From: a virus
Taxonomy: Duplodnaviria; Heunggongvirae; Uroviricota; Caudoviricetes
Virus record (IMG/VR): IMGVR_UViG_2636416136_000013
Location: 1-40,427 of that record
Length of the DNA: 40,427 nt
Reading direction: 5' to 3' (one strand)
Shown here: in pieces, positions 1 through 40,427 of the stretch
Layout: every line of letters starts with the position of its first letter
How positions within the stretch are numbered: the first letter of the stretch is position 1
Notes under the pieces: model-generated
The model's input: only the letters and a program-made list of their open reading frames with translations
Databases searched by the model: none
Told to the model about the DNA's origin: nothing
Program-made: the position numbers and the translations under genes

Positions 1-603
1 CTTCTATATGATAATCCATCATTATCCAACTCTGATATTCAGTTGTTGGCGACAAATCAATTGATTAGTTATCATGTTGTTTTAAATAATAAAATGCTTC
101 CTAATCAGTGCGCTCTTCTTCCTTTGTCGAAGTTAATTATTATTAGCGATAACTTTAGAAAGTTAGCAAAAAATGCTGATTATAATGGGCCGGAACTTTT
201 CACGCACGCACATCAATTCGTGGGACAAAATTACTTAGGATTTGGCGATTATACAATTACTGGCCAGGTACTAGATCTTGGAGGTGGTCAACCTTCTGCT
301 GTTGCCGCACATTTGGTGTTCAAGAATTTACAAGCGAATACAGTTTGGATTCGTCATTTTGTATCAAGCAACACGCAACGAGGAAGTTCAAATGTTACTG
401 CAAAATTTTTAGATGTTTCAGATCAAATTACAAATCTTGTTCCCCAACATCCAACCCAGTTTGGCAGCAACATTGGTCTTAACTATTATTATTACAATAG
501 TCAACCAACTGTAAGGCATTTCCCTGGGTTGCCAAAAAACAAACAGTATCAAATTACTCACCATATTTGTTTCATGCTGGATTTAATAGCAGGTCGTATT
601 TAA
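1..603 (+). CDS. Partial ORF, probably the C-terminal part of a protein starting upstream of the window; function unknown
   Basis: Reading frame is open from nt 1 (the track's Met at 43 is a TTG); AT-rich; the 3' end overlaps the 3' end of the convergent integrase by ~20 nt. No recognisable motifs. Confidence 0.3.
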   Translation, partial: LLYDNPSLSNSDIQLLATNQLISYHVVLNNKMLPNQCALLPLSKLIIISDNFRKLAKNADYNGPELFTHAHQFVGQNYLGFGDYTITGQVLDLGGGQPSAVAAHLVFKNLQANTVWIRHFVSSNTQRGSSNVTAKFLDVSDQITNLVPQHPTQFGSNIGLNYYYYNSQPTVRHFPGLPKNKQYQITHHICFMLDLIAGRI

Positions 604-1758
604 TAAGCTAGCGTACCATTCCATCATTACTTGTCGATCTTTAATATATTGCGCATGATTGTAAGTACCTCGAATAGAGTTCTTATCAACATGCGCAAGC
701 TGCATTTCAATCCAGGCACTTTCAAACCCATGCTCATGCAAGATGGTGCTCATGGTATGCCTGAAACCGTGACCCGTTAACCGACCGTGATAACCCAGTA
801 GTTTTATCACTTTGTTGATGCTGGCTTCGCTCATTGGTTTACTGACGTCATTCCGGCCAGGGAAAACGAGGCTGTAATTCCCTGTTATTTCTTGCAGCTT
901 TTTCAGGATATTGATCGCCTGAGTTGATAACGGAACCAGATGGGGGCGGCGTTTCTTCATCCGTTCTTTGGGGATCTCCCATAAGGCATTATCTAAATCA
1001 AACTCAGCCCATTCCGCTGCACGTAGTTCAATTGTTCGCACGCCTGTTAGCATCAACAGCTGCGTGGCGTATTTGGTAACTAAACTGCCCTGATAGTTAT
1101 CCAGAGCATTAACGAACTCGGGCAACTCGCTTTCAGTCAGGAACGGGAAGTGTTGGGTTTTAGGTTTGTTGAGTGCGATAGCTAAATCGGGTGCAAAATT
1201 ATACTTTGCTCTACCAGTGGCAACAGCATAACGAAGCACTTCACCACAGCGGCGGCGGATCTTACTGGTTTGCTCTAGCGCACCTCTTTTCTCTATTTTT
1301 TGCAGGACGGTTAGCAGTTCTAATGGTTCAATCTGCTCAATTGGGCGCTGGCCGATAAAAGGAAAAATATCCTTTTCCATACAATTGAGAACCTCTTTTG
1401 CATAACCCTCTGACCAGGTGGCTTTTTTCGATGAGTGCCATTCTCTGGCCACAGACTCAAAGCTGTTCTCATGCGCGAACTGCAAAGCAATCTTATCTGC
1501 TTTTCTGGCTTCACTTGGGTTTATCCCGTTGGCTAACATCGAACGCGCTTCATCACGTTTGGTACGTGCCTGTGCCAACGACACATCGCCATATACGCCA
1601 AAGGAAATCATCTTAGGCTTACCTGCAAAGCGATAGCGAAAACGCCAGCCTTTACTGCCCGCTGTGTCGATCAGGAGTGATAGCCCCATACCATCGTTAA
1701 GCGTATAGGGTTTGTCCTTCGGTTTTGCTCTTTTTATTTGGATGTCAGATAGCAGCAT
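583..1758 (-). CDS. int: P4-family tyrosine integrase (site-specific recombinase)
   Basis: N-terminus MLLSDIQIKRAKPKDKPYTLNDGMGL is a typical P4/CP4-57-type arm-binding start; C-terminal catalytic region has HGFRHT...LAHVDKNSIRGTYNHAQY (R..HxxR..Y). Start set at the internal Met (MLLSD), not the track's upstream Met. Confidence 0.9.
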   Translation of the reverse strand: MLLSDIQIKRAKPKDKPYTLNDGMGLSLLIDTAGSKGWRFRYRFAGKPKMISFGVYGDVSLAQARTKRDEARSMLANGINPSEARKADKIALQFAHENSFESVAREWHSSKKATWSEGYAKEVLNCMEKDIFPFIGQRPIEQIEPLELLTVLQKIEKRGALEQTSKIRRRCGEVLRYAVATGRAKYNFAPDLAIALNKPKTQHFPFLTESELPEFVNALDNYQGSLVTKYATQLLMLTGVRTIELRAAEWAEFDLDNALWEIPKERMKKRRPHLVPLSTQAINILKKLQEITGNYSLVFPGRNDVSKPMSEASINKVIKLLGYHGRLTGHGFRHTMSTILHEHGFESAWIEMQLAHVDKNSIRGTYNHAQYIKDRQVMMEWYASLLNTTCY

Positions 1759-2006
1759 GTGTATAGAAAAAAGATCGAACTCAGTTATACACAATGTTAT
1801 ACGCAAAGATGTATAGATTCCATTAGAAATAATGGTACTTTGCTGGACGAGTATAAGGAGATGATATCAGTTAAAACAGTGAGTTATGGAATTAATTGAA
1901 CTTAGTGAGAAGTGTTCATGGTGTCCCCTGCAGACATCTACTTGAGGCGGCAGGGGATTGATTGGAATGGTGTTTTTTAGATGTGAAAAATATTTTACCC
2001 GCTATT

Positions 2007-10331: not shown

Positions 10332-11279
10332 ATGAGCAATACAGCAAAAATCTACGATTTCAGCGCCGCACACGAGCGCAGGAGCAACAGGATGGAGAAC
10401 CAGAAAACTGGTTACATTCCGTTGTACCGGAGCATTCTGAAACAGTCATGGGCGAAAGATGTTTATCTTCGCACCCTGTGGGAAAACCTTCTCCTGAATG
10501 CCGCCAGAAAGCCATACAAAGCGAATTTCAAAGGTCATGAATGGCATCTGCAACCCGGTCAACTGGTTGTGACAGCAGCTGATTTAGGTCTTCAGTTATG
10601 CGACAGGCATGGCAAGCCGGCAAGCCGTGATCAGGTTGAGCGGATGCTTCAGGTTTTTGTGAAAGAGGGGATGATCTCCATTGATGGGGAGAAGCAAAAA
10701 GGTCGTGTGATAACCATCACAAATTACCATGAATATGCTCAAAAAATGGACAATTCACCCGCACATGAAGCCGCACAAACAACCGCACATGAAGCCGCAC
10801 ATGATGAAGCCAGTAATGGCGCGGCTTTCAGCGCACATGCCGCACATGAAAGCGCACATGAAGCCACACAAACAACCGCACATCATGAACAAGAAGGTAT
10901 TAACAAGAATATAAATAATACCCCCCTACCCCCCAATGGGGGAGGCGATGGGCAGGTTAAACCTGAACGTCGCAAGGCAGAACGAATCGACTACGAATCC
11001 TTCCTGAACGCCTACAACACCGAAGTCGGTGACAGACTGCCACACGCTGTTGCGGTCAACGAGAAACGCAAACGCCGCCTGAAGAAAATCATCCCGCAAC
11101 TGAAAACGCCAAACGTGGACGGTTTCAGAGCGTATGTCAGGGCGTTTGTACATCAGGCCAAGCCGTTTTACTTCGGAGACAACGACACTGGCTGGACGGC
11201 AGATTTTGATTACCTGCTGAGGGAAGATTCGTTAACGGGAGTTCGGGAAGGGAAGTTTGCAGACAGGGGGATTGCATGA
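10332..11279 (+). CDS. O: Replication initiation protein (O-like; internal repeat-encoded linker)
   Basis: Located where lambdoid phages encode O / P22 gene 18; [10 protein letters not shown] start resembles lambda O; central region encodes repeated AHEA/TTAH units from DNA direct repeats; stop overlaps the helicase start (ATGA). Confidence 0.75.
10758..10899 (+). repeat. Iteron-like direct repeats inside the O-like gene (candidate replication origin) followed by an AT-rich stretch
   Basis: Multiple copies of CGCACATGAAGCC / GCACATG units within ~140 bp, then aacaagaatataaataata and a C-rich/G-rich inverted element; the same layout as ori-lambda inside O. Confidence 0.6.
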
Positions 11280-13669
11280 GACAGGATATCGAAGCGAGCG
11301 TTATCGGTGGCCTGCTGATTGGTGGATTAACTCCAACCGCCAGTGACGTTCTGGCAACGCTTGAGCCGGAAGCGTTTTCAATTCCGCTCTACAGGAAAGC
11401 CTTCGAAGTTATCCGTAAGCAGGCGAGAAACAGAAATCTAATCGACGCGCTGATGGTTGCCGAGGCGTGCGGAGAGGAGCATTTCACGTCAATCCTGATG
11501 ACCAGCAAAAACTGCCCGAGTACCGCAAACCTGAAGGGATATGCCGGAATGGTCGCGGATAACTATCACCGCCGTCTGGTGCTGGAAATCATGGATGAAA
11601 TGCGTGAACCAATTCAGAGCGGAACCATCGACGCGTCGAGTCAGGCGATGGATGAACTTGTAAAGCGTCTCTCAGCTATCAGAAAGCCCCGTGACGAGGT
11701 TAAACCGGTACGCTTAGGGGAAATCATCACCGACTACACTGACACGCTTGACAGGCGTCTGAGGAACGGAGAAGAGTCAGATACCCTGAAGACCGGAATC
11801 GAAGAACTTGATGCCATCACCGGAGGGATGAACGCGGAAGACCTGGTGATAATCGCTGCTCGTCCTGGTATGGGGAAAGCAATGGCGCTAAGCGAAGGGA
11901 TTTTACTTGCAGATGGCACCTGGACTACTCACGGAGAAGTCAAAATTGGCGATCGCATCGCGTCAATAGACGGGCTTCCTTCGGAGGTAATTGGCGTCTT
12001 CCCACAAGGGAAGAAATTCACATATTTAGTCACCTTTGAAGACGGACGTAGCGTGAAATGTGCCGACAACCACTTATGGGAAATTTCATCATCAAGATTT
12101 ACTGGTAAACGCGTTGTTGATACTGATGCGCTGGCTGGGATGCTACAAAAAACACGTTATCAGGGAAGAATAAGAGTGCCATCCTTGACCGGAGACTTTG
12201 GTAAAAATATTTCCCTTGATGGTTGGGTTATTGGTGCTCTACTTGGTGACGGTTCGTTGATAAAAGGCATCAAATTCACCAACTCGGAAGAATATGTCCT
12301 GAGCCGCATGAGTGATGCAATTGCACCATTGCGACTGGTTAAGGTAGGAGAGAATGATTATTTGATAAGCAACCAAAAAGGCCAGAAGAACCCACTATTG
12401 GACAAACTACGTGGCATTGGGGTGATCGGGAAAGGTGCGTCCGAGAAGGAAATCCCAGCAGAAATTTTTAGTGCTAGCAAAGAAATACGTACCGGTGTTT
12501 TAACTGGCCTTCTCGAGACAGATGGCTGGGTTGAGAAGTCCGGATGCATCCGCTTTAGTTCATCCAGTCAGAAATTAGCTAAAGGATTAGTAAGGCTTGT
12601 TAGATCTTTAGGTGGAACCGCCAAAGAATCCAGCAGGACGGGAATAGTTTACACGTACAAAGGAGAGAAGCATGACGGACTTGATGCACACATGGTCAGC
12701 ATGAAGTTGCCATCATCTTTGATAGAGCAAATTCACTCACCACGTTTACGCAAAAATCTCGGGATTAACAGGCTTGGCGACCTTGGTGTGGGTATCAAAT
12801 CGGTTGAAGTTGTTGAGCCAGAAGAGTGTCTCTGCATCATGGTAAGCCATCCTAGCCATCTCTATGTGACAACGGATTACATCGTTACGCACAATACGGA
12901 ACTGGCGCTGAAGATTGCCGAAGGCGTTGCAAGCCGCGTTATTCCTGGTTCTGACGTCCGGCGCGGGGTATTGATTTTCTCAATGGAAATGAGCGCATTG
13001 CAGATTGCAGAGCGAAGCATTGCCAACGCCGGGAGGATGTCGGTTAGCGTACTGCGAAATCCTGCATCGATGGATGACGAAGGCTGGGCGCGCGTTGCTA
13101 ACGGCATGAGTCAGCTTGCAGATTTGGATGTATGGGTAGTCGATGCCTCGCGGTTATCGGTCGAAGAAATACGCTCAATCGCAGAACGGCACAAACAGGA
13201 AAATCCAAACCTGTCACTCATCATGGCGGATTATCTTGGCCTGATTGAGAAGCCGAAAGCAGATCGCAACGACCTCGCAATTGCTCACATCTCCGGAAGC
13301 CTTAAGGCGATGGCGAAAGACCTGAAAACGCCTGTGATCTCCCTAAGTCAGCTTTCGCGCGATGTTGAGAAGCGACCAAACAAACGCCCGACAAACGCAG
13401 ATTTGCGTGATTCAGGAAGCATTGAACAGGACGCAGACTCAATCATCATGCTCTATCGGGAAGCGGTATATGACGAGAACAGTAGCGCCGCGCCATTTGC
13501 TGAAATCATCGTGACGAAAAACCGTTTTGGCTCACTTGGTACGGTTTACCAGCGGTTCTGTAACGGACACTTTGTTGCATGTGACCAGGATGAAGCCAGA
13601 CAGATTTGCACAGCATCAAATGCACCTGCTGCGCGTGGCAGACGATATGCACAAGGGGCTGACGTATGA
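11276..13669 (+). CDS. DnaB-family replicative helicase interrupted by an intein
   Basis: Walker A ...[11 protein letters not shown] is split from [10 protein letters not shown]...; C-terminal DnaB motifs follow ([49 protein letters not shown]). The exteins alone total ~458 aa, normal for DnaB. Confidence 0.9.
11879..12895 (+). mobile_element. Intein (~339 aa) with a LAGLIDADG homing-endonuclease domain inserted in the helicase P-loop
   Basis: Block A-like A(M)[13 protein letters not shown] after GMGK; block B NHLW; two LAGLIDADG motifs ([13 protein letters not shown] and [14 protein letters not shown]); block F ECLCIMV; block G YIVTHN followed by Thr. The exact N-terminal boundary is uncertain by about 2 residues. 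Confidence 0.8.
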
Positions 13670-20380: not shown

Positions 20381-20821
20381 ATGGCGCGCCCAACAAAGTA
20401 TCAAGAGGCGTACGCCGAACAGGCACGCAAACTGTGCTTGCTGGGCTACACCGATGCAGAGCTTGCTGATTTCTTCGAAGTCAGTGAGTCAACTATTAAC
20501 AAGTGGAAGCTTGATTATCCTGAGTTTTCGGAGTCCATAAAAAAGGGTAAGGCCGTCGCTGATGCAGAAGTTAGTGACCGTCTTTATCAACGCGCTATGG
20601 GCTTCGTGGCTCCAGACATCGATATTCGTGTTATTGAAAACAGAATTGTCGAAACTCCGCTTGAGAAGTATTACCCGCCTGATACAACCGCCGCCATCTT
20701 CTGGCTTAAGAATCGACAGAAGGATAAATGGCGCGACAAGGTTGATCACGAGCTAACAGGCAAAGACGGCGGCGCAATCCAGATTGAAACATCACCGATG
20801 AGCACTCTATTCGGAAAATGA
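20381..20821 (+). CDS. Terminase small subunit (Sf6 gp1-like)
   Basis: N-terminal HTH MARPTKYQEAYAEQARKLCLLGYTDAELADFFEVSESTINKWK; C-terminus ...TGKDGGAIQIETSPMSTLFGK recalls the Sf6 small terminase; directly precedes terL. Confidence 0.8.
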   Translation: MARPTKYQEAYAEQARKLCLLGYTDAELADFFEVSESTINKWKLDYPEFSESIKKGKAVADAEVSDRLYQRAMGFVAPDIDIRVIENRIVETPLEKYYPPDTTAAIFWLKNRQKDKWRDKVDHELTGKDGGAIQIETSPMSTLFGK

Positions 20822-22233
20822 CCTCGATTAATCCTATCTTTGAACCGTTCATTGAGGCGCATCGCTACAAAGTCGCCAAAGGCGGTCGAGGTAGCGGTAA
20901 GTCATGGGCAATTGCTAGGCTGCTTGTTGAAGCGGCGCGTCGGCAGCCTGTGCGTATTCTCTGCGCTCGTGAACTGCAAAACAGTATCAGCGATTCGGTA
21001 ATCCGGTTGCTTGAAGACACCATAAAGCGGGAAGGGTATTCGGCTGAGTTTGAAATTCAGCGTTCAATGATTCGTCATCTCGGAACGAATGCTGAATTCA
21101 TGTTCTACGGCATAAAAAACAACCCGACGAAGATTAAATCGCTAGAAGGTATTGATATCTGCTGGGTGGAAGAAGCGGAAGCGGTAACGAAGGAATCGTG
21201 GGATATCCTGATTCCAACCATCCGCAAGCCGTTTTCCGAAATATGGGTGAGTTTCAACCCTAAGAACATCCTCGACGATACCTATCAGCGATTCGTTGTA
21301 AATCCTCCCGATGATATTTGCCTGCTGACGGTGAACTACACCGACAATCCGCACTTTCCTGAAGTTCTCCGTCTGGAGATGGAAGAGTGTAAACGCAGAA
21401 ATCCGACACTGTATCGTCACATCTGGCTTGGTGATCCAGTAAGCGCAAGTGATATGGCAATCATCAAACGTGAATGGCTTGAAGCCGCAACCGATGCGCA
21501 CAAGAAACTCGGATGGAAAGCGAAAGGCGCTGTTGTCTCTGCGCATGACCCATCAGATACAGGGCCGGATGCTAAAGGTTATGCATCGCGTCACGGTTCG
21601 GTAGTTAAGCGCATTGCCGAAGGTCTGCTGATGGACATCAACGAGGGGGCTGACTGGGCTACTTCGCTGGCGATTGAAGACGGTGCTGACCACTACTTGT
21701 GGGATGGTGATGGTGTTGGTGCAGGGCTACGCAGACAGACAACGGAAGCGTTCTCCGGTAAGAAAATCACCGCCACGATGTTCAAGGGCAGCGAATCGCC
21801 ATTTGATGAAGATGCACCATATCAGGCTGGAGCATGGGCTGATGAAGTCGTGCAGGGCGACAACGTTCGCACTATTGGCGATGTGTTCCGCAATAAGCGA
21901 GCGCAATTCTATTACGCGCTGGCTGACAGGTTGTATCTGACATATCGGGCGGTTGTCCACGGTGAGTATGCAGACCCCGACGACATGCTGAGCTTCGACA
22001 AAGAAGCGATAGGCGAGAAGATGCTGGAGAAGCTGTTTGCAGAACTGACGCAGATTCAGCGCAAATTCAATAACAACGGGAAGCTGGAGCTTATGACTAA
22101 GGTCGAAATGAAGCAAAAGCTCGGTATTCCATCTCCTAACCTGGCTGATGCGCTGATGATGTGTATGCATTGCCCGGAGTCGGCTGCGCAACCCGACTAT
22201 TCCAGTTACTCAATTCCTTGTGGTGTAGGTTGA
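20818..22233 (+). CDS. Terminase large subunit (ATPase/nuclease)
   Basis: Walker A KVAKGGRGSGKSWA; Walker B-like ICWVEEAE; 471 aa; ATGA overlap with terS. Confidence 0.9.
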   Translation: MTSINPIFEPFIEAHRYKVAKGGRGSGKSWAIARLLVEAARRQPVRILCARELQNSISDSVIRLLEDTIKREGYSAEFEIQRSMIRHLGTNAEFMFYGIKNNPTKIKSLEGIDICWVEEAEAVTKESWDILIPTIRKPFSEIWVSFNPKNILDDTYQRFVVNPPDDICLLTVNYTDNPHFPEVLRLEMEECKRRNPTLYRHIWLGDPVSASDMAIIKREWLEAATDAHKKLGWKAKGAVVSAHDPSDTGPDAKGYASRHGSVVKRIAEGLLMDINEGADWATSLAIEDGADHYLWDGDGVGAGLRRQTTEAFSGKKITATMFKGSESPFDEDAPYQAGAWADEVVQGDNVRTIGDVFRNKRAQFYYALADRLYLTYRAVVHGEYADPDDMLSFDKEAIGEKMLEKLFAELTQIQRKFNNNGKLELMTKVEMKQKLGIPSPNLADALMMCMHCPESAAQPDYSSYSIPCGVG

Positions 22234-27370: not shown

Positions 27371-28789
27371 ATGCCGATTCAGCAACTTCCGCTTATGAAA
27401 GGTGTCGGCAAAGACTTTAGAAACGCTGACTATATCGACTATCTGCCAGTGAATATGCTGGCTACACCCAAAGAAATCCTGAACAGCAGCGGATATCTTC
27501 GCTCATTCCCGGGCATTGCCAAACGTTCTGATGTGAACGGTATATCTCGAGGCGTCGAGTACAACATGGCGCAGAGTGCTGTTTATCGCGTGTGTGGTGG
27601 CAAACTGTATAAGGGCGAAAGTGAGGTCGGTGATGTTGCCGGAAGTGGTCGCGTATCAATGGCGCATGGTCGAACATCACAGGCGGTAGGCGTTAACGGG
27701 CAACTGGTCGAGTATCGCTATGATGGCACGGTTAAAACCGTCTCAAACTGGCCTACAGACAGTGGATTCACGCAGTATGAGTTAGGCTCAGTCCGCGACA
27801 TTACGCGCTTGCGTGGGCGTTATGCGTGGTCAAAAGACGGCACTGATTCATGGTTTATCACTGACCTTGAAGACGAATCGCATCCTGACCGTTACAGCGC
27901 ACAATATCGCGCAGAATCGCAGCCGGACGGCATCATCGGTATCGGCACATGGCGAGACTTCATCGTCTGCTTTGGTTCATCGACGATTGAATATTTCTCC
28001 CTGACGGGTGCAACCACCGTTGGTGCTGCTTTGTATGTCGCACAGCCATCTCTTATGGTGCAGAAAGGCATTGCCGGGACTTACTGCAAAACGCCATTCG
28101 CTGATTCCTATGCGTTTATCAGCAATCCGGCAACAGGTGCGCCGTCTGTGTACATCATCGGCTCCGGTCAGGTATCACCAATCGCCAGCGCGAGCATTGA
28201 GAAAATACTACGCTCCTACACTGCTGATGAACTGGCTGATGGCGTGATGGAGTCTCTGCGATTTGATGCGCATGAGCTGCTGATTATCCATCTTCCGCGC
28301 CATGTTCTGGTGTACGACGCATCTTCAAGCGCCAATGGTCCGCAATGGTGTGTGCTGAAAACAGGCCTGTATAACGATGTGTACCGCGCTATCGACTTCA
28401 TTTACGAAGGCAATCAGATAACGTGCGGCGATAAGCTGGAGTCCGTGACCGGGAAACTGCAGTTCGATATCAGCAGCCAGTACGACAAGCAACAGGAACA
28501 TCTGCTGTTTACTCCTCTGTTCAAAGCGGATAACGCCAGAGTTTTCGACCTTGAAGTTGAATCGTCAACTGGCGTTGCGCAGTACGCCGACCGCCTGTTC
28601 CTCTCTGCAACCACTGACGGCATAAATTACGGTCGTGAGCAGATGATTGAGCAGAATGAACCGTTCGTTTACGACAAACGCGTTTTGTGGAAGAAAGTAG
28701 GGCGCATCAGGAAAAACATTGGCTTCAAATTGCGCGTTATCACGAAGTCACCTGTCACTCTGTCTGGCTGCTCTATTAGGCTGGAGTAA
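27371..28789 (+). CDS. Tail hub protein (P22 gp10-like)
   Basis: 472 aa, the same length as P22 gp10 as recalled, in the conserved position after gp4. Confidence 0.7.
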   Translation: MPIQQLPLMKGVGKDFRNADYIDYLPVNMLATPKEILNSSGYLRSFPGIAKRSDVNGISRGVEYNMAQSAVYRVCGGKLYKGESEVGDVAGSGRVSMAHGRTSQAVGVNGQLVEYRYDGTVKTVSNWPTDSGFTQYELGSVRDITRLRGRYAWSKDGTDSWFITDLEDESHPDRYSAQYRAESQPDGIIGIGTWRDFIVCFGSSTIEYFSLTGATTVGAALYVAQPSLMVQKGIAGTYCKTPFADSYAFISNPATGAPSVYIIGSGQVSPIASASIEKILRSYTADELADGVMESLRFDAHELLIIHLPRHVLVYDASSSANGPQWCVLKTGLYNDVYRAIDFIYEGNQITCGDKLESVTGKLQFDISSQYDKQQEHLLFTPLFKADNARVFDLEVESSTGVAQYADRLFLSATTDGINYGREQMIEQNEPFVYDKRVLWKKVGRIRKNIGFKLRVITKSPVTLSGCSIRLE

Positions 28790-28791
28790 TA

Positions 28792-29286
28792 ATGATTTCA
28801 CATGAAGAGTTGAAGCGTCATTTATCATATGACCCAGAAACCGGGGTTTTTACCCGAAAAATATCAAATACAGCGAGCGTCACCGTTGGTGATGAAGCGG
28901 GAACCATGTGCACTGGTTATTTAAGGATAATGGTCTGTGGTAAGAGATACTTAGCGCATAGGCTTGCTTGGTTTTATATGACAGGAAAACCTGCAAATTG
29001 CTTAATAGATCATATTAACGGAGACAGAACGGATAACAGATTTTCAAATTTAAGATTGGCAAATAGATCCCAGAATGGGATGAACAGGAATATTCAAAGA
29101 AATAATAAGTCAGGATATCCGGGTGTCTGTTGGCACAAAAATCTCTGCAAGTGGACTGTTTCTTTCAATAAAAATAAAAAACAGGTTCACGTTGGATGCT
29201 TCGATGACCTGGACGAAGCTATCTCAGCATCAATGATGGCAAGAGCAGAAAATTTTGGAGAGTTTGCAAGGCAGAGGATTGAGTAA
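28792..29286 (+). CDS. Free-standing HNH homing endonuclease with AP2-like DNA-binding domain
   Basis: HNH-type motif [26 protein letters not shown]; AP2-like [16 protein letters not shown]...[14 protein letters not shown]; start and stop overlap the gp10 stop and gp26 start. Confidence 0.8.
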
Positions 29287-29987
29287 TGGCTGATTCGAAT
29301 CTCAATGAGCCAGTAATCATCCAGGCTACGCGGCTCGATACATCAATCCTTCCACGCAATATATTCAGCCAGTCTTACCTGCTGTATGTCATTAATCAGG
29401 GAGCTGATGTCGGTGCAATTGCTGGGAAGGCAAATCAGGCTGGTCAGGGCGCTTACGATGCCCAGGTAAAAAACGATGAACAGGACGTAGAACTGGCTGA
29501 TCACGACGCAAGAATCACCGCAAACACAAAAGCGATAAATCTCCTTGAGGTCAGGTTAACAACCGCCGAAGGGAAGATAGTCGTACTGCGTAGCGATGTT
29601 GATTACTTGCTGGATGAGGTTATCGATATTCAGGCGCATCTGGTCACTGTTGACCAAAGACTGGATGACGTAGAAAGCGATGTATCTGACATTAAGAGTG
29701 ATTACGTATCGAAAACCGTAACCGAATCGCAGTCTCTTGCGTCACCGCTGGATGTAAAAACATCATATTCAGTTGATGGAATTCAGGTTGTTGGAGCAAG
29801 AAATACCGGATGGACTGCAGCCACAGGTACACCTCTTATTGGCTCATTCAACGCTAACCAGTCATACGCTGTCGGCACTACGTACACACAATCCGAAGTC
29901 GCAGCTCTCGCTACAGGTTTGCAGCAGGCGCGGCAGCGTATTCTGGCGCTTGAAACAGCACTTAGATTACATGGGCTGATTGACTGA
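29286..29987 (+). CDS. Tail needle protein (P22 gp26-like)
   Basis: 233 aa; N-terminus [73 protein letters not shown] closely matches P22 gp26; coiled-coil middle; C-terminal LRLHGLID. Confidence 0.9.
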
Positions 29988-39269: not shown

Positions 39270-40427
39270 TCACTCCACCTTATCATCTAACCAGTCAGCC
39301 CACCATTGCATCATTTCTCTGCGTTTATCGAGATACTGAGCATGGTTGTAAATTCCGCGCACAGATCCGCCGTTGGCATGTGCCAGTTGCACCTCAATCG
39401 CGTCAGCAGGCCATTCGTGCTCGTTCATAATCGTGCTGAATTCATGCCTGAATCCGTGACCGCTTTCCAGACCCTCATAGCCGATTTGTTTGATCACAAG
39501 CAATACCGCGTTCTCGCAGATTGGCTTCTTCTTATCGTTGCGCCCGGCAAAAACAAACTCTGATACTGGTTTAGTGATTGAGCTTAGCGTAGTGAGAAGT
39601 TCAACCACCTGGTCTGACATCGGGACCACATGAATTTTGCGTCCCTTCATCACACTGGCGTCGATGGTGATAATCCTGTTTTCAAAATCGACGTTCTTCC
39701 ATAGCATGGAACGAAGCTCTTTCGTTCTTAGGGCGGTGTAGCGTAAAACTTTGGTCGCAATGAGCGATACGATGCTTCCTGAAAATGTTGCCAGTGCTTT
39801 GTTAAATGCCGGGATCTGGTCTGCTGGAAGGAACGGGAAGTTCTTCTTGCGGTATCCTTTCATGGCGTCTGCAAGGTCAGGTGCCGGGTTATATTTAGCC
39901 CTTCCGGTGACAATAGCGTAACGGAAAACCTCGCCGCATCTTCTGCGTGCTTTGTTGGCTCGCTCCATTGCCCCGCGATCTTCAAATCTGCGGATTACTT
40001 CCAGCAGTTGCATCGGCTCAATATCCTGAATTTCAAGGCCGCCGATGATGGGTAAAATGTCGTCATCAAACATTTTTGCAAGTTCAGTTGCATAGCCTAC
40101 TGACCAAACTTGCTTCTTGTGCTCGTACCATTCCTTGTAAATCGCACTAAAGGAATTGTTGTTAGACGAAGCCTTTTTCGCTTTTACCGGATCGATGCCA
40201 ACCGAGATGTCTTTCCTCGCGGTCCATGCTTTATCTCTTGCCTCCTGCAAAGTCATTAGCGGATATTTTCCTACGGTCAGGATTTTCTCCTTACCGTCAA
40301 TCTTGTAGCGAAGCTGCCATACCTTTTTCCCTGACACAGGGACATAAAGGTACAGGCCATTACCATCGAGTAGGCGGTATGGTTTTTCTTTCGGCTTTGC
40401 TGCTTCAATCTGCTTAACGGTGAGCAT
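39270..40427 (-). CDS. int: P4-family tyrosine integrase (second copy; start codon at the window edge)
   Basis: MLTVKQIEAAKPKEKPYRLLDGNGLYLYV N-terminus parallels the left integrase; catalytic HGFRHE...LAHANGGSVRGIYNHAQY; the ATG is the last three bases of the window, so upstream signals are not visible. Confidence 0.88.
   Translation of the reverse strand: MLTVKQIEAAKPKEKPYRLLDGNGLYLYVPVSGKKVWQLRYKIDGKEKILTVGKYPLMTLQEARDKAWTARKDISVGIDPVKAKKASSNNNSFSAIYKEWYEHKKQVWSVGYATELAKMFDDDILPIIGGLEIQDIEPMQLLEVIRRFEDRGAMERANKARRRCGEVFRYAIVTGRAKYNPAPDLADAMKGYRKKNFPFLPADQIPAFNKALATFSGSIVSLIATKVLRYTALRTKELRSMLWKNVDFENRIITIDASVMKGRKIHVVPMSDQVVELLTTLSSITKPVSEFVFAGRNDKKKPICENAVLLVIKQIGYEGLESGHGFRHEFSTIMNEHEWPADAIEVQLAHANGGSVRGIYNHAQYLDKRREMMQWWADWLDDKVE

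Follow-up and report, generated by a model that had tools for sequence, protein, structure and literature searches.

Gene content of the locus

The window, i.e., the whole stretch of 40,427 nucleotides that was analysed, holds a P22-like prophage in which an integrase, a Rep-O-like protein, DnaB, the terminase, the P22 portal and a tailspike whose head-binding domain is that of P22 were recognised. Among its morphogenesis genes, an ATG-started open reading frame of 164 codons, referred to below as the endonuclease gene, separates the tail hub gene gp10 from the tail needle gene gp26. This is the placement that was given in the preliminary description, and both the open reading frame call and the Pfam and PHROG matches of the neighbouring genes agree with it. 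The genes that are of importance here are as follows:

11276-13669, + strand: DnaB helicase gene, 797 aa, with the C-terminal domain matched in two stretches
20818-22233: terminase genes
27371-28789, + strand: gp10, tail hub/head closure, upstream of the endonuclease gene (Pfam Phage_stabilise, 1e-298; PHROG_578, head closure Hc3)
28792-29286, + strand: endonuclease gene, ATG-started open reading frame of 164 codons
29286-29987, + strand: gp26, tail needle of the HK620/P22 type, downstream of the endonuclease gene (PHROG_1219, tail needle protein, 3e-113)

On the 3' side of gp26, a gp14-like gene (DUF2824) is followed by genes that, according to Pfam and PHROG, occupy the positions of the P22 ejection-protein genes. 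The stop codon of the endonuclease gene shares one base with the gp26 start (TAATG at 29284-29288), as had been reported. The overlap that was claimed between its start and the gp10 stop was not found: the gp10 TAA (28787-28789) is followed by two bases (TA) and then by the ATG, and it is a second in-frame TAA (28790-28792) whose final A is shared with the endonuclease ATG. The GC content inside the open reading frame was 37-39% compared with approximately 50% in the flanks (0.51 and 0.48 for the flanking genes), and its GC3 of 0.38 was lower than the 0.44-0.63 of the five adjacent genes. A scan of the + strand between 28300 and 29700 for promoter-like and terminator-like sites found none. Because the coding strand has no such site, the endonuclease gene is most likely carried on the late transcript with no polar effects and no disturbance of tail-gene expression.

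A second homing-type element had been reported elsewhere in the window. Residues 393-454 of DnaB match LAGLIDADG_3 and Hom_end, which is consistent with an intein that carries a homing endonuclease, and the earlier count of two such elements, the HNH gene and the LAGLIDADG insertion in the DnaB gene, was upheld. Both ends of the window carry a tyrosine integrase gene, at 583-1806 (- strand) and 39270-40427 (- strand), and the two have an identical set of domains. The latter comes after the tailspike gene, reaches the window edge and probably belongs to an adjacent integrated element.

Domain composition and predicted active site

The regions that were assigned in the protein are as follows:

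28792-28947, + strand: N-terminal beta-hairpin region, residues 1-52, 5' of the nuclease core, as in I-HmuI
28948-29082, + strand: HNH_3 nuclease core, residues 53-97 (Pfam, alignment to I-HmuI 1u3e, 73 homologues)
29008-29013, + strand: codons of the predicted catalytic residues D73 and H74, which together with N82 and N95 lie in the HNH_3 core
29110-29250, + strand: AP2-type DNA-binding domain, residues 107-153, composed of a sheet and a helix

The Pfam profile HNH_3 (PF13392) was matched over its full length (1-46) with 58.7 bits (4.3e-16), far above the cut-off of 24.8, and the protein also matched PHROG_99 'HNH endonuclease' (9e-70). NCBIfam held no model for it. An AlphaFold2 model that was built from 73 homologues was confident (pLDDT 91.8, pTM 0.78) and predicts an I-HmuI-like HNH fold of the beta-beta-alpha-metal type for the nuclease core, so the HNH motif of the preliminary description gained support from both the profile and the model, and the lack of an HNH fold, which had been considered as grounds for rejecting it, was not what the modelling returned. 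The AP2-like domain that had been proposed stands less evenly. The model predicts a sheet of three antiparallel strands that packs against a C-terminal helix, and the Pfam AP2 match (PF00847, 1.2e-4) reached 22.7 bits, which is under the gathering cut-off of 33.3; matches to PF00847 are precomputed for many close homologues of the endonuclease. According to the model, both domains are confirmed at the level of the fold, and the AP2 assignment is supported mainly by that predicted fold.

In the HMMER alignment to I-HmuI (1u3e), whose sequence similarity to the endonuclease is marginal (E 0.19), D73-H74 correspond to D74-H75, N82 to N83 and N95 to N96 with equal spacing. Among the 73 homologues, D73 and H74 were invariant and both N82 and N95 were conserved in at least 90%. 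In the I-HmuI structure, which is said to have been described by Shen et al. in 2004, the aligned residues reportedly act as the general base, the structural asparagine and the metal ligands. The doubt about activity that had been raised over a motif ending in HINGD proved to be unfounded, as the motif had been misregistered; read from the aligned sequences as D73-H74...N82...N95, it is the usual His-Asn-Asn variant. The window copy has an asparagine at residue 126 (29167-29169) in the AP2 sheet, while a lysine is found in 17/17 of the other intact copies (T378G). K126N is a private change of this copy.

Anatomy of the empty and occupied junctions

Comparison of the window with genomes in which gp10 adjoins the needle gene defined the insert and its edges:

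28772-29274, + strand: insert relative to the empty site, 503 nt in place of CAGATA (6 nt), a net gain of 497 nt
28772-28791, + strand: recoded gp10 tail and 2-nt spacer, in which TCT ATT AGG CTG GAG TAA encodes S-I-R-L-E-stop
29275-29288, + strand: end of the endonuclease gene, AGG ATT GAG TAATG, its last three codons and stop

The 497-nt gain is the difference between the 1701 nt that the query covers in the window and the 1204 nt that it covers in the HK620-type records. In 8/8 E. coli/Shigella-type sequences, the empty junction reads ...GGCTGC CAG ATA AGG AT(T/C) GAG TAATG GC... and gp10 terminates in Q-I-R-I-E. The occupied junction was uniform in all 19 carriers, its left end being ...GG(C/T)TGC TCT ATT AGG CTG GAG TAA TA ATG... 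and its right end ...CAG AGG AT(T/C) GAG TAATG GC.... The last five gp10 codons of the carriers are replaced by the sequence TCTATTAGGCTGGAG, which converts QIRIE into SIRLE and was present in 19/19 insert-bearing loci and in none of the eight empty E. coli/Shigella-type junctions. The carrier allele has both the site split and 5/15 tail bases altered in every one of the 19 loci.

Both edges appear to be equipped for translation. A putative GGAG ribosome-binding site (28783-28786) lies in the recoded tail, 5 nt 5' of the endonuclease ATG. At the other edge, AGG ATT GAG TAATG is identical to the native gp10 end at empty sites and, judged by its sequence, gives the needle gene back its ribosome-binding site and its TAATG overlap. 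The cassette ends form an imperfect 13-nt direct repeat, AGGCTGGAGTAAT and AGGATTGAGTAAT (28778-28790 and the 29275-29288 region). A recoded tail fused straight to the needle-gene start, the footprint that a precise loss would leave, was not found in IMG/VR, so the exact recoded tail was encountered solely alongside the endonuclease gene. The insert-free Salmonella phage SI8 has the native gp10 tail ...CAA ATT CGT CTG GAG TAA, from which it follows that the substitute tail may be donor flank from another P22-like lineage.

Distribution among phages and E. coli genomes

The preliminary description had regarded the gene as an insertion into a conserved structural operon, and the relatives bear this out. 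In HK620, CUS-3, IME10, Huey, E212 and others, gp10 is directly joined to the needle gene, and the region is exactly 497 nt shorter; the two genes are also contiguous in Sf6, whose needle gene is too different to be aligned. Of 37 phage records with the gp10 3' end, only one, vB_EcoP-683R2, has the endonuclease gene. The gp10 3' region was found in 920 of 5426 complete E. coli genomes and the endonuclease gene in 16/5426, which is far from the universal presence that would speak for an essential gene, as the uninterrupted junction was found in at least 423, a lower bound that was obtained using a 100-nt probe centred on the uninterrupted junction. Eight carrier E. coli annotations list the protein as WP_021529423.1 or, in FDAARGOS_1280, as an IS2-truncated form of it. 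IMG/VR added ten carrier loci. Insertion of the endonuclease gene is optional, and its site is precise.

In ON470594.1 (vB_EcoP-683R2, L001 3593-4087), an identical gene is labelled 'endolysin' and gp14 is labelled 'head decoration protein'; both labels are probably annotation errors. One carrier P22-like element (L010) lies on a replicon that is recorded as a plasmid, the 176.6-kb 'plasmid p3' of E. coli EC20. A scan of one genome per species, a sampling that tells little about the host range, returned no close relative and only homologues of 39-41% identity in Methylobacterium and Gilliamella.

Variation of the cassette and of its flanks

Among 18 intact copies of the endonuclease gene, five of the 495 positions varied and the identity was never below 99.4%; these copies comprise the first nine-locus set and the ten IMG/VR loci, counting the intact ones only. 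In the first nine carrier loci, the 495-nt gene had three variable sites in all, whereas a 50-nt stretch contained approximately seven in gp10 and 14-37 in the needle gene. The gp10 identity was 92-100% among these nine loci and 91-95% to the window copy in all 18 of the others. The history of the gene is therefore incongruent with that of its flanks, as the gene is at least 99.4% identical, gp10 91-95% and the needle gene far less. The near-invariant tract extends from approximately 28769 to 29289; to its left, the carriers vary again from 28768 outwards, and to its right from the second needle codon (29290-29291) onwards.

The backbones in which the cassette resides are also mixed. The gp10 sequences of carriers interleave with those of non-carriers, and for 4/9 carriers (the window, L005, L007 and L010) the closest gp10 was from an insert-free genome. 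Downstream of the cassette, several needle N-terminal alleles were found as well as Sf6-type knob needles, and several of these N-terminal alleles also occur in the listed insert-free loci. Taken at sequence level, this pattern is what repeated transfer by homing would be expected to produce. As all of the carriers have one junction structure, the number of independent insertion events cannot be counted.

A more distant relative was found at the same junction of a metagenomic P22-like phage (L018), in which the identity is 77% for the protein (P0003) and, for gp10, 71% at the protein level and 65% at the DNA level. The junction architecture is alike: gp10 ends in S-I-R-V-E, the spacer is 2 nt long, and the gene closes with AGG ATT GAA TAATG, which differs from that of the window by one substitution (GAG to GAA). 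Comparison of the endonuclease gene with that of P0003 gave a dN/dS of 0.083 (dS 1.30, dN 0.11). Because the dN/dS against this 77%-identical relative is so low, the sequences indicate long-term purifying selection and, presumably, a long tie to the gp10/needle site.

Two kinds of disrupted copy were also found. In FDAARGOS_1280 (L006 1261-2489), an IS2 interrupts the endonuclease gene in its 5' part, so that nt 109-495 remain, and in IMGVR_UViG_2547132415_000014 (L036 2501-2991), a 1-nt deletion in a T run near nt 59 causes a frameshift, making this copy either a pseudogene or a sequencing error. Since IS2-interrupted and frameshifted copies exist, the gene appears to be unnecessary for prophage maintenance. 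An equally 5'-truncated match that is split over two places was observed in strains 2779 and 5283 (H95 and H96).

A second endonuclease gene at the same junction

An unrelated gene of 181 aa with NUMOD4 and HNH_3 domains and a GC content of 0.39 was found at the same gp10/needle junction:

L003 1612-2157 (phage HZ41): NUMOD4-HNH_3 gene
L016 2112-2657 (E. coli A42 prophage): NUMOD4-HNH_3 gene

Of the complete E. coli genomes, 16 contain full-length copies, mostly at least 99% identical, and 18 others gave matches that were weaker or partial. Like the endonuclease gene of the window, it is a free-standing HNH_3 gene between gp10 and the needle gene and occurs at a similar frequency. It differs in its N- and C-terminal DNA-binding modules, as it has NUMOD4 and no AP2 match, and it has its own 21-nt spacer with a ribosome-binding site, whereas the spacer of the window gene is 2 nt long. 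The NUMOD4-HNH_3 gene is linked to a gp10 3' end of approximately 300 nt that is only 50-70% identical to HK620, compared with approximately 95% further upstream; from its sequence, this stretch resembles a long piece of flank of foreign origin.

Discussion

In this study, the gene at the gp10 3' end of a P22-like (Lederbergvirus-type) prophage is very probably a free-standing homing endonuclease gene of the HNH_3 + AP2 family. The preliminary description had read it in the same way, and this reading is supported by its rare and precise insertion, by the empty sites in relatives and by the predicted HNH fold, from which we infer activity and homing. The event would take place where insert-bearing and insert-free P22-like genomes replicate in one cell. 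There, the endonuclease would bind the intact junction, about ...GGCTGC CAGATA AGGATTGAGTAATGGC..., by means of the AP2 domain and the N-terminal hairpins; this target site is proposed from the comparison of junctions. A nick or a cut would then be made at the junction, with H74 as the general base and the metal held by D73 and N95, and recombinational repair from the insert-bearing genome would copy in the cassette together with the recoded gp10 tail. Because the cassette splits and recodes the site, the carrier genome would be immune to its own endonuclease. A palindrome in the empty junction, CTGGC-T-GCCAG, was considered as the recognition element and rejected, as it is missing in Sf6-type empty junctions (GGCGCTCAG).

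The same population pattern could also, as far as the sequences tell, go back to a single old insertion whose flanks later underwent ordinary homologous recombination, a frequent event in these phages. The gene would then be an immobile relic of that insertion, with a protein that is inactive or has another role. One founding event is indeed enough to explain the one junction structure of all 19 carriers. Mosaicism is pronounced in P22-like phages, modules already meet at the gp10/needle junction where the insert is missing, and disrupted copies exist, one with the IS2 insertion and one with the frameshift. We nevertheless consider a relic unlikely. The gene stays at least 99.4% identical while gp10 diverges by approximately 4-9% to within a few bases of the cassette, and passive hitch-hiking would require repeated crossovers at both cassette edges. 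Moreover, the catalytic residues are intact, and the dN/dS of 0.083 against the 77%-identical relative argues for a protein that was kept functional.

Two further roles for an active nuclease deserve to be weighed against homing. Very unlikely, although compatible with homing, is that the gene primarily serves competition or exclusion as a weapon that cuts co-infecting insert-free P22-like genomes, with homing as a by-product. Its target would be an essential late-operon junction that is common to hundreds of E. coli prophages, the single PADLOC match of the protein is to the 'homing endonuclease' model of that program, and nuclease genes at exchange boundaries between competing phages have been described (PMC10448857); yet with no promoter-like site on the coding strand, the gene would probably be silent in a lysogen and leave the host unprotected, and the sequence offers nothing that separates a weapon from plain homing. 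Anti-phage defence in the lysogen was likewise considered and found to be unlikely, given the lack of a promoter-like site on the coding strand and a PADLOC match to what is a generic homing-endonuclease model. An even more improbable role, to which we give almost no weight, is that of a domesticated HNH protein that participates in virion production, such as the terminase-associated HNH of HK97-like cos phages, or that of an AP2-type late regulator. The location in the morphogenesis operon and the translational link to the needle gene would suit such a function, but the gene is missing in nearly all relatives, including the viable HK620, Sf6 and CUS-3, it is not adjacent to the terminase genes (20818-22233), and both an IS2-disrupted and a frameshifted copy exist. 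The idea of an HNH protein that acts with the terminase was rejected because of the position of the gene and its dispensability.

As a homing endonuclease, the protein has well-established relatives. The combination of HNH and AP2 is a recognised homing endonuclease architecture according to Magnani et al. (2004), as cited in PMC10448857 and PMC5714182, and HNH_3/I-HmuI constitutes group 2 of the His-Me finger classification, in which AP2 is among the DNA-binding modules (PMC5714182). HNH homing genes adjoin essential or structural phage genes and the boundaries of genetic exchange (PMC10448857). Like other HNH-AP2 homing endonucleases, the protein has an N-terminal HNH_3 and a C-terminal AP2 domain and is encoded by a small free-standing gene beside essential or structural genes; unlike them, its lineage is tied to the gp10/needle junction of P22-like temperate phages. 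Homologues were found in 2758 of 50,697 phage records, and the nearest one in a cultured phage beyond vB_EcoP-683R2 was only 48% identical. I-HmuI (1u3e) of the Bacillus phage SPO1 differs in being encoded within a group I intron, whereas the present gene is free-standing, and in having a helix-turn-helix as its C-terminal DNA-binding domain in place of AP2. A closer parallel is offered by the IPA-HNH genes of ICP1-like vibriophages described by Barth et al. (2023; PMC10448857), which also combine HNH with AP2 and are located beside structural genes and, as here, at boundaries of exchange between related phages. Their HNH domains, however, are too divergent for the Pfam HNH_3 profile, which the window protein matches strongly, and these phages are lytic, whereas the window is a temperate P22-like prophage. 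In the literature that was searched, the scope of which excluded Casjens and Thuman-Commike (2011) and Magnani (2004), an endonuclease between genes 10 and 26 of P22-like phages was undescribed, and the searchable literature held no description of this endonuclease lineage.

The architecture of the gene is thus a textbook one in which HNH and AP2 were already established, and the biology is not new in kind. What makes it noteworthy is the clean natural polymorphism, the self-contained design that spares the expression of the operon and the second, unrelated endonuclease at the junction. Nuclease genes have landed at the gp10/needle junction more than once, and this is relevant to the exchange of needle modules. 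It is conceivable, albeit rather doubtful, that the junction is a contested site at which the two unrelated HNH cassettes compete, each with its own substitute gp10 C-terminus that would make the insertion phenotypically silent, and at which cutting drives the sharp module boundary and, through it, the frequent swapping of needle alleles. If this were true, selfish nucleases would shape the mosaicism of the tail needle gene in temperate enterobacterial phages. On the practical side, the 'endolysin' label of the gene in ON470594 calls for a database correction. As both the carrier and the empty allele are available in cultured phages (vB_EcoP-683R2 compared with HK620 and Huey), direct tests are feasible, and homing, target recognition by AP2 and protection by the recoded gp10 tail could all be tested in this pair. 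Judging by its sequence features, the locus would provide a natural and cleanly defined homing system in the P22/HK620/Sf6 group, in which the genetics are very good.
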